NCBI RefSeq assembly: GCF_003334385.1
Contig: NZ_QOWN01000132.1
Length of the DNA stretch: 1,045 nucleotides
Direction: 5' to 3' (one strand)
From: Escherichia coli
GTDB taxonomy: Bacteria; Pseudomonadota; Gammaproteobacteria; Enterobacterales; Enterobacteriaceae
A program made the translations under genes and the position numbers. Below the pieces are notes generated by a model that worked only from the letters and a program-made list of their open reading frames with translations, searched no databases and had not been told where the DNA came from. Below are positions 1 to 1,045 of this stretch, in pieces. The stretch's first letter is position 1; every line of letters begins with the position of its first letter.

Positions 1-401
1 GGCCACCACACTTCGCTGGTGGCAGCTTTGATCAGGAAAACATAGCGCCCGCCTTTATCACGCATGGCACTGGCATGTTTCATGATGTAACGCATGCCGG
101 TGATGTATTGCCCCTCATGCTGACTGGCGCGGCTGTACGGGGGATTGCCAAAGGCAGCACCTTTAAGCTCCGCAAGACGTTCTGACCAGTCATGCGCCAG
201 CGCATTGTCTTCCGCCGTGTAATACGCGGCACATTTGGCGTTATCACCGTCAGTGAACAGATCCAGAACAAACGGACCAAACAAGGTGTTAATTCCCCAG
301 AAAATGTTGTCCGGCGTGCGCCACTGATCGCCCACTTCCTTCAGTTCATGGGCTGGTTTGTTCCGCAGTTCTACCAGCGCCTGGCAATATTTATTACTCA
401 T
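1..401 (-). CDS. dam: DNA N6-adenine methyltransferase, phage Dam family; N-terminal 133 aa only, the 3' end lies beyond window position 1
   Basis: Hand translation of the minus strand from the ATG at 401..399 gives MSNKYCQALVELRNKPAHELKEVGDQWRTPDNIFWGINTLFGPFVLDLFTDGDNAKCAAYYTAEDNALAHDWSERLAELKGAAFGNPPYSRASQHEGQYITGMRYIMKHASAMRDKGGRYVFLIKAATSEVWW..., with no stop down to position 1. The catalytic NPPY tetrapeptide is at 146..135 (AAT CCC CCG TAC). DQWRTP (W-x-TP) is at 329..312. The pattern LD-(x)n-NAK-x3-YYT-x-ED-x-L-(x)n-W-(x)n-NPPYS matches what I recall of the phage Dam family (Pfam PF05869 type). A G5 Shine-Dalgarno sits 4 nt upstream, and the start overlaps the upstream stop (TAATG). 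The ORF is absent from the supplied track because it is open at the window edge. Confidence 0.9.
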   Translation of the reverse strand, partial: MSNKYCQALVELRNKPAHELKEVGDQWRTPDNIFWGINTLFGPFVLDLFTDGDNAKCAAYYTAEDNALAHDWSERLAELKGAAFGNPPYSRASQHEGQYITGMRYIMKHASAMRDKGGRYVFLIKAATSEVWW

Positions 402-493
402 TAAGCCCCCACGTAAAAAGCATCCGCAATGTCTCCGGAAGTACACCCCGGATGGGCTTCAATGAATTTCTGAACTTCATTCAAAAGACTCAT
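401..493 (-). CDS. hypothetical 30-aa protein (micro-ORF), resembling the first two helices of a small winged-helix/HTH protein
   Basis: The minus-strand ORF from the ATG at 493..491 to the TAA at 403..401 encodes MSLLNEVQKFIEAHPGCTSGDIADAFYVGA*. An AGGGGG Shine-Dalgarno at 504..499 ends 5 nt before the ATG. The start lies 2 nt after the upstream TGA (GGGGGTGATCATG), and the stop overlaps the dam ATG (TAATG). It exactly fills the only gap between two confident genes. It is too short for compositional evidence, so coding status rests on the RBS and this coupled geometry. Confidence 0.5.
   Translation of the reverse strand: MSLLNEVQKFIEAHPGCTSGDIADAFYVGA
406..410 (-). promoter_or_regulatory. 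Shine-Dalgarno (GGGGG) for the Dam methyltransferase gene, embedded in the last codons of the micro-ORF
   Basis: The minus strand reads ...TAC GTG GGG GCT TAATG AGT. The G5 run ends 4 nt before the ATG at 401. The context (G5, short spacer, ATGAGT) is the same as at the micro-ORF start. Confidence 0.6.
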
Positions 494-495
494 GA

Positions 496-1045
496 TCACC
501 CCCTGAATCCTTCCGGGATCTGGCTGTAGTCCACGTTGTCGTAACTGGCTTTGAAGTACGGGTCCTCGCGTCTGGCTGCAGATACCGCAGGAACTTCCCA
601 GGATTCTTCGAAATGACGATCCGGACCAAAGAACGTCGACGCCTGCTTCACGAACTGGGTACCGGTATTTCCAGAGACACGCACCCAGGCGGCATAGCGT
701 TTCACACCGTCGAGCATGGTTTCGGGTGTCACACCTTCCCTGATACGGGCTTTCCAGGCTTTGAAGGCTGCTGACTTGGAATTGCCACCAGCACGTTTGG
801 GATACTCCTGCCAGGCCTGTTCAAATTCCGGTGAATATTCCTGTCGGGCAGAACGCGCTGGCGCAGACGCGTCAGCGGATGCATCAATAGTGTTTTTAGT
901 CTCCGTTGTAATCTCTGTAGTAATCTCTGTATTTGTATCAACATTCGGCGTACCCCCTGTTCCGTTATGACGTCGGGGGGTGTTCCGTTTTAACGTAATA
1001 GCTGTATCGCTGATTGCATTATTGCTGTTACTTTCTGGCGAAACA
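496..1045 (-). CDS. phage early-operon protein, C-terminal 182 aa (5' end beyond window); low-complexity linker plus conserved C-terminal domain; tentatively a replication-initiator (O-like) or replication-associated protein
   Basis: The track lists this ORF as 496..732 starting with M, but that codon is GTG (732..730) and the frame stays open upstream to the window end. Hand translation: ...VSPESNSNNAISDTAITLKRNTPRRHNGTGGTPNVDTNTEITTEITTETKNTIDASADASAPARSARQEYSPEFEQAWQEYPKRAGGNSKSAAFKAWKARIREGVTPETMLDGVKRYAAWVRVSGNTGTQFVKQASTFFGPDRHFEESWEVPAVSAARREDPYFKASYDNVDYSQIPEGFRG* (TGA at 498..496). I recall the FExxWxxYPKRxGxxxKxxAxKAWxxR block as recurrent in C-terminal domains of phage replication-region proteins. 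The functional label is inference from that recollection and from synteny. Confidence 0.7.
   Translation of the reverse strand, partial: VSPESNSNNAISDTAITLKRNTPRRHNGTGGTPNVDTNTEITTEITTETKNTIDASADASAPARSARQEYSPEFEQAWQEYPKRAGGNSKSAAFKAWKARIREGVTPETMLDGVKRYAAWVRVSGNTGTQFVKQASTFFGPDRHFEESWEVPAVSAARREDPYFKASYDNVDYSQIPEGFRG
499..504 (-). promoter_or_regulatory. Shine-Dalgarno (AGGGGG) for the 30-aa ORF, embedded in the last codons of the upstream gene
   Basis: The minus strand reads ...TTC AGG GGG TGA TC ATG AGT. The purine-rich G5 run ends 5 nt before the ATG at 493. Confidence 0.55.
908..931. repeat. perfect 12-bp tandem duplication, gtaatctctgta x2 on the plus strand, with a degenerate third unit at 896-907
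   Basis: Positions 908-919 and 920-931 are identical base for base. Unit 896-907 (ttagtctccgtt) matches at 8 of 12 positions. The repeat is in frame on the minus strand and encodes TEIT-TEIT within ...NTEITTEITTETK... Confidence 0.9.
958..989. repeat. 9-bp direct repeat tgttccgtt (958-966 and 981-989), 23 bp centre to centre
   Basis: Both copies are exact. They are preceded by C5 (953-957) and G6 (975-980) respectively and are separated by atGACGTC, which contains a 6-bp palindrome at 969-974. The 23-bp offset is not a multiple of 3, so the two copies are read in different codon phases of the minus-strand CDS (NGT versus KRNT context). Confidence 0.85.

Follow-up and report, generated by a model that had tools for sequence, protein, structure and literature searches.

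A 30-codon open reading frame upstream of a prophage dam gene in Escherichia coli is a deletion allele of a yfdN/orf40-type gene

What is a 30-codon open reading frame between the replication gene and the dam gene of an Escherichia coli prophage, and does it encode a functional microprotein? The frame lies in a 1,045-nucleotide stretch of DNA, here called the window, in which all genes run on the minus strand. An earlier note, made from the sequence alone, saw in it the front half of a small winged helix of the PapI/FaeA type. Two explanations were offered: a genuine microprotein, possibly a leader for dam translation, or the remnant of a longer winged-helix gene whose 3′ half had been displaced by an incoming dam module. 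We conclude with high confidence that the micro-ORF is what a 396-bp in-frame deletion has left of a yfdN/orf40-type gene, and that its product is probably translated and most likely inert.

The short frame and its parental gene

The features of the window are listed from the replication gene towards dam.

496..1044, minus strand: replication protein gene, C-terminal 182 codons and TGA (498..496); runs off the window; identified from the annotation of near-identical genomes
499..504, minus strand: Shine-Dalgarno-like AGGGGG, 5 nt upstream of the micro-ORF ATG; read from the sequence
401..493, minus strand: micro-ORF including its stop, 30 codons; deletion allele of the yfdN/SfV-orf40-type gene that has lost residues 27-158
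416..493, minus strand: 5′ remnant, codons 1-26, corresponding to helix 1 and helix 2 of the parental winged helix; 78/78 nt identical to SfV orf40, helices taken from the structural model
415..416, minus strand: deletion junction GCTTTT/TACGTG, where 396 bp (132 codons) are absent relative to full-length alleles; from alignment
401..415, minus strand: 3′ remnant, the last four parental codons TAC GTG GGG GCT (YVGA) and TAA; from alignment
3..401, minus strand: phage N6-adenine methyltransferase gene (dam), N-terminal 133 codons; Pfam PF05869, E 2.9e-33; runs off the window

The earlier note had a 30-codon frame at 493..401 of the minus strand, bounded by the stop of the replication gene and the phage dam start, and its coordinates, translation and context prove correct. 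The frame opens with an ATG at 493..491, closes with a TAA at 403..401 and encodes MSLLNEVQKFIEAHPGCTSGDIADAFYVGA. Its stop does overlap the dam ATG (401..399), as had been observed, in a TAATG at 403..399. A second possible start, the GTG at 499..497, overlaps the stop of the replication gene as GTGA. Both arrangements recall the coupled, overlapping genes of phages (TAATG/ATGA), and the Shine-Dalgarno sequence of dam (GGGGG, 410..406) falls within the codons of the 3′ remnant, 4 nt upstream of the dam ATG. The window contains 16 ORFs of at least 20 residues, so a length of 30 codons is unremarkable alone; it is homology that makes the micro-ORF non-random. Two plus-strand ORFs that overlap the region (358..465 and 452..529) were taken as chance because they lie antisense to conserved coding sequence. 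An Rfam search of both strands at E up to 1 gave no match.

In near-identical genomes the NCBI annotation pipeline PGAP labels the replication gene 'replication protein' or 'LvrA C-terminal domain-related protein', and a Pfam search with its product gave no match. Within its minus-strand coding sequence, at window 900-931, lies a 12-bp tandem repeat (TACAGAGATTAC, 2.7 copies) that codes for TEIT-TEIT-TETK. Repeat copy number differs among prophages, and one extra copy in E. coli E2 accounts for the difference between 1057 and 1045 nt in length. The repeat could be part of a linker in the protein or, as in lambda O, represent iteron-like repeats of an origin that lies within the replication gene. 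A GATC at window 494-497 (in GTGATCATG) spans the replication-gene stop and the micro-ORF start exactly, and further GATC sites are present in the flanking genes.

A prophage in E. coli NCTC9112 matches the window at 99.9% identity, and numerous lambdoid prophages and phages (among them SfV, mEp460, Stx phages and cdtI) match at 92-98%. In most lambdoid relatives this match splits in two, with ~396 extra bases in between. The extra bases belong to a gene annotated as a 'PerC family transcriptional regulator', which is yfdN in K-12-type prophages and orf40 in SfV. Alignment of window 340-560 with phage SfV and the E. coli AR_0017 prophage gave a single gap, exactly 396 columns long, flanked by perfectly colinear sequence. 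Of the micro-ORF, the first 78 nt agree with the start of SfV orf40 at every position (78/78), and the last 15 nt with the end of that gene (15/15). The full-length proteins of SfV and AR_0017, 162-164 residues long, start with MSLLNEVQKFIEAHPGCTSGDIADAF and finish with YVGA*. The micro-ORF consists of codons 1-26 of this gene, fused in frame to its last four codons and stop, and the AGGGGG ahead of it is unchanged from the full-length gene, being the same in SfV and AR_0017. The alignment demonstrates the origin of the ORF and its exact junction.

YfdN of the K-12 prophage CPS-53 and SfV orf40 occupy the same locus as the micro-ORF, between replication gene and dam, and have the first 26 and last 4 codons with the stop, the Shine-Dalgarno sequence and the TAATG in identical form. 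Unlike them, the micro-ORF has no residues 27-158. Colinearity around a single internal gap, with a full-length orthologue at the same locus in relatives, marks it as a gene remnant, and the parts predicted to be needed for function (recognition helix 3, wing, linker and the entire PerC domain) all fall in the missing segment. Lambdoid prophages of the CPS-53/SfV kind normally have the 162-164-residue gene between replication gene and dam, and in the window a single event removed 396 bp, codons 27-158, in frame. Microhomology at the junction amounts to 1 nt, a T, so that the event was illegitimate recombination rather than repeat-mediated slippage. Our analysis found no evidence contradicting a deletion origin. 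In NCTC9112, O157:H7 NE122 and strain E2, PGAP annotates the stretch equal to window 499..416 as a hypothetical-protein pseudogene ('incomplete; missing C-terminus') that ends exactly at the junction. The micro-ORF is a truncated allele of a known gene, already flagged by RefSeq as a pseudogene, and no new kind of element.

The same alignment bears on the proposal that an incoming dam module took the place of the 3′ half of a small winged-helix gene, leaving a mosaic junction at about 399-410. Lambdoid prophages are indeed mosaic, and the genes that flank the module vary between copies. However, the 15 nt that precede the dam ATG are the genuine end of the parental gene. On either side of the junction the sequence is colinear with a single parental gene, down to its final four codons and the TAATG. 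In SfV, AR_0017 and ~70 other loci a full-length gene meets this dam at an identical TAATG, and E. coli genomes have full-length copies beside it at 3,236 places. The sole discontinuity is the internal 396-bp gap, at 416/415 and not where the mosaic junction had been suspected. Displacement is refuted by this comparison, and we give it practically no chance. The idea of a longer parent was right, and that parent is the yfdN/orf40 gene; a genuine microprotein gives way to a deletion allele of it. Longer homologues were also found, but not in the size of 60-90 residues that had been suggested: they have 162-164 residues and two domains, the C-terminal one being PerC.

Predicted fold of the parent and likely fate of the 30-residue product

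The parental protein is predicted to consist of an N-terminal winged helix-turn-helix (wHTH), a disordered linker and a C-terminal three-helix PerC domain. Pfam PerC (PF06069) matches residues 98-150 of the parent at 38.9 bits against a cut-off of 22.6. MarR_2 matches residues 10-57 below threshold (19.6-21.6 bits against 27) and reaches E 2.4e-4 when the N-terminal 67 residues are searched alone. The parent also matches PHROG 1324, 'transcriptional activator', at E 2.6e-77. The full-length homologue was modelled with AlphaFold2 from 20 enterobacterial homologues, and the model contains the following elements.

Residues 3-13: helix 1, pLDDT 82-91
Residues 19-25: helix 2, pLDDT 82-91
Residues 31-44: helix 3, the recognition helix, pLDDT 82-91
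Residues 47-60: beta-hairpin wing, pLDDT 82-91
Residues 63-84: linker, disordered
Residues 90-149: three-helix C-terminal domain, pLDDT about 90

In this model the remnant ends at residue 26, after helix 2 and before the recognition helix, and the description of the peptide as the front half of a winged helix therefore stands. The micro-ORF itself is not a wHTH: helix 3 and the wing are absent, whereas the parent model has all four elements. It gives no PerC (PF06069) match, and all of parental residues 98-150 are deleted. A product without recognition helix, wing and PerC domain could not act as the parental regulator does, and from these losses we infer that it is most likely inert.

The more specific likeness to PapI/FaeA (PF04703) does not hold. 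A family of small winged helices that acts with Dam methylation at GATC sites would make a position beside dam functional. The parental N-domain is also a small winged helix, its helix 1/helix 2 pattern is real and similarly laid out, and in thousands of prophages its gene directly precedes dam. Yet the searches detected no sequence, profile or specific fold similarity to PapI/FaeA beyond the general wHTH fold. FaeA in Pfam gave no match at E up to 10 to the peptide, the 67-residue N-domain or the full-length proteins, the best weak match being MarR_2, and a family profile returned nothing among PDB sequences at E up to 10. Foldseek searches of the PDB with the N-domain aligned 58-67 residues at rmsd 1.5-3.0, with E above 0.001 throughout. 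The matches were generic winged helices (ArsR/SmtB, MarR, PerR/Fur, DsrD, MecI, SlyA), and PapI, which we take to be PDB entry 2HTJ, was absent from the best 50. In the window the domain is destroyed in any case. Membership of the PapI/FaeA family is rejected here as extremely improbable.

A selected, functional microprotein, for instance one that interferes with full-length YfdN-type regulators of co-resident prophages, has some circumstances in its favour. The allele is widespread (116 genomes, phage cdtI, Salmonella deposits, >100 contigs), and up to four copies of the module per E. coli genome mean that partner proteins could exist. The ORF is also intact in 12 of the 12 copies read, in an allele that is too young and too parent-like for this to be informative. 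Against such a function, the sequence is the parental one and has acquired nothing peculiar to the short form: E6D is a polymorphism already present among full-length alleles, and A30D is confined to cdtI. Twenty-six winged-helix residues without helix 3 or wing are unlikely to fold, PGAP calls a pseudogene, and the many other decayed alleles of the same gene speak for dispensability rather than a new function. We regard a functional microprotein as very unlikely and prefer a deletion remnant with an inert product.

Possible consequences for dam expression

A separate question is whether the remnant matters to the gene that follows it. The possibility of a leader ORF raised in the earlier note has the right architecture: stop and start overlap in the TAATG at 403..399, and the dam Shine-Dalgarno GGGGG lies inside the upstream ORF. 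Among the related loci examined, the upstream frame ends on the dam ATG in 86 of 86. The short form has this overlap from its full-length parent rather than as a trait of its own, and coupling through it is putative. Because both Shine-Dalgarno sequences, the parental ATG and the TAATG are kept, the remnant probably continues to be translated, in which case ribosomes would terminate at the start of dam. The remnant may deliver ribosomes to that start by translational coupling, a reading from sequence that we hold tentatively, at somewhat less than an even chance. Against strict coupling, dam has its own Shine-Dalgarno sequence (GGGGG, 4-nt spacer) and could initiate independently. In addition, +1 and -1 frameshift alleles of the same gene (loci L006 and L008) adjoin the same dam start, which suggests that an intact upstream frame is not obligatory.

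The GenBank record of SfV places a predicted dam -35/-10 promoter in the 3′ part of orf40 (SfV locus 2295-2321), in the segment deleted from the window allele. Coupling would matter more in this allele for that reason. A scan of the window for promoter-like or terminator-like sites found none; with the predicted promoter deleted as well, dam in the deletion allele would most likely be expressed by read-through from the early operon.

The deletion also alters what lies near the dam start. In the minimum-free-energy fold, the dam Shine-Dalgarno sequence and ATG (GGGGCUUAAUGAG) pair with micro-ORF codons 10-13 (UUCAUUGAAGCCC), the minus-strand RNA segments being window 455-468 and 398-410, which the deletion brings from ~460 nt to ~45 nt apart. 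With z -1.33 against shuffled controls, this fold of the micro-ORF/dam junction has no excess stability, which likewise speaks against strict coupling. The deletion alone puts a GTG at 446..444 on the minus strand in frame with dam, 45 nt ahead of its ATG and with no stop between. The record of phage cdtI starts dam at the equivalent position, where it has CTG, giving 699 nt instead of 654 nt. This long annotation is probably an artefact, since the ATG with its GGGGG Shine-Dalgarno sequence is conserved in all loci.

One can also conjecture that the deletion allele is a selected minimal form, in which the regulator has been removed and a short translated leader is now needed for dam. Under such selection the internal dam promoter would have been lost, and dam would rely on early-operon read-through. 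If true, this would explain the recombinational spread of the allele over several replication-gene backgrounds in E. coli and Salmonella; we consider it unlikely. More remote still is a variant in which the 30-residue helix 1-helix 2 peptide would interfere with full-length paralogues of co-resident prophages.

Spread of the deletion and decay of the gene

The deletion allele is not confined to one strain. A 44-mer centred on the junction, which can match deletion alleles only, was matched 122 times, in 116 of 5,426 complete E. coli genomes, and is also found in phage cdtI. The carriers include O157:H7, O111:H8, O103:H2, O91:H21, UPEC, ETEC and avian strains. The deleted 396-bp segment itself was located in 2,588 E. 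coli genomes, at 3,236 places, so that ~3-4% of gene copies carry the deletion. Among 80 IMG/VR loci retrieved with a Dam fragment, 8 have the same junction and 64 an intact 162-residue gene between replication gene and dam; the others comprise 4 with a 3-bp deletion, 1 with a 12-bp deletion, 2 with +1/-1 frameshifts and 1 truncated at a contig edge. Public records list the peptide as 'hypothetical protein' in E. coli and Salmonella enterica, on >100 contigs. Spread of the allele is directly observed in these data.

Junction-bearing loci have at least three different replication-gene backgrounds. Of the three 5′ haplotypes of the deletion allele, two recur without change in full-length alleles. 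Several backgrounds and haplotypes in common with full-length alleles fit a deletion that arose once and then passed between prophages by homologous recombination. That this site was deleted repeatedly and independently is unlikely, given the 1-nt microhomology and the identity of two of the three 5′ haplotypes with full-length ones. Further along the same prophage module, a small LexA-family gene of the SfV orf42 type lies between dam and rusA in NCTC9112 (L001, 7295-7621) and is absent from O157:H7 NE122 and strain E2 (L005, L086), where rusA follows dam directly. It represents a further presence/absence polymorphism of this module.

The yfdN-type gene also decays in other ways. A protein database search with the full-length SfV orf40 protein found other in-frame deletion alleles in public protein clusters, lacking 11, 13, 17, 17, 37, 40, 42 and 43 residues. 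These deletions of 11-43 residues remove parts of the winged helix or of the PerC domain. Further decayed forms include many truncated proteins and read-through fusions to Dam or RusA. In-frame changes (the eight deletion alleles and the 3-bp and 12-bp deletions) stand against frameshifts and truncations, for which the protein-level counts mix contig-edge partials with true frameshifts. Decayed alleles were seen as proteins (P0046, P0051, P0060, P0064, P0078, P0079, P0086, P0088) and at loci (L006, L008, L020, L042, L047, L069, L074). Such frequent decay through in-frame deletions, frameshifts and fusions suggests that the yfdN-type gene is dispensable for prophage maintenance.

The link to PerC places this gene beside the PerC/Pch activators of the LEE regulator ler in EPEC and EHEC: the parental C-terminal domain matches PF06069 above the gathering threshold, and the micro-ORF, unlike PerC/Pch, keeps none of that domain. 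The classical PchA-C genes are short, 315 bp (PMC5931665), and for that reason their products presumably have no N-terminal winged helix. The divergent homologues PchD and PchE show minimal ler activation, with little or no activity in ler reporter assays (PMC5931665). In the literature searched, yfdN comes up solely as the PerC homologue of K-12, removed as a source of background from a ler reporter strain (PMC5931665).

The value of these results is chiefly one of annotation hygiene, as a plausible microprotein turns out to be a deletion allele of a known, functionally uncharacterised prophage gene that RefSeq flags as a pseudogene. The predicted two-domain architecture of the yfdN/orf40-type gene, a winged helix joined to PerC, is relevant to research on PerC/Pch regulators. 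The deletion allele also offers a natural construct with which the translational coupling of phage dam to its upstream gene may be probed.
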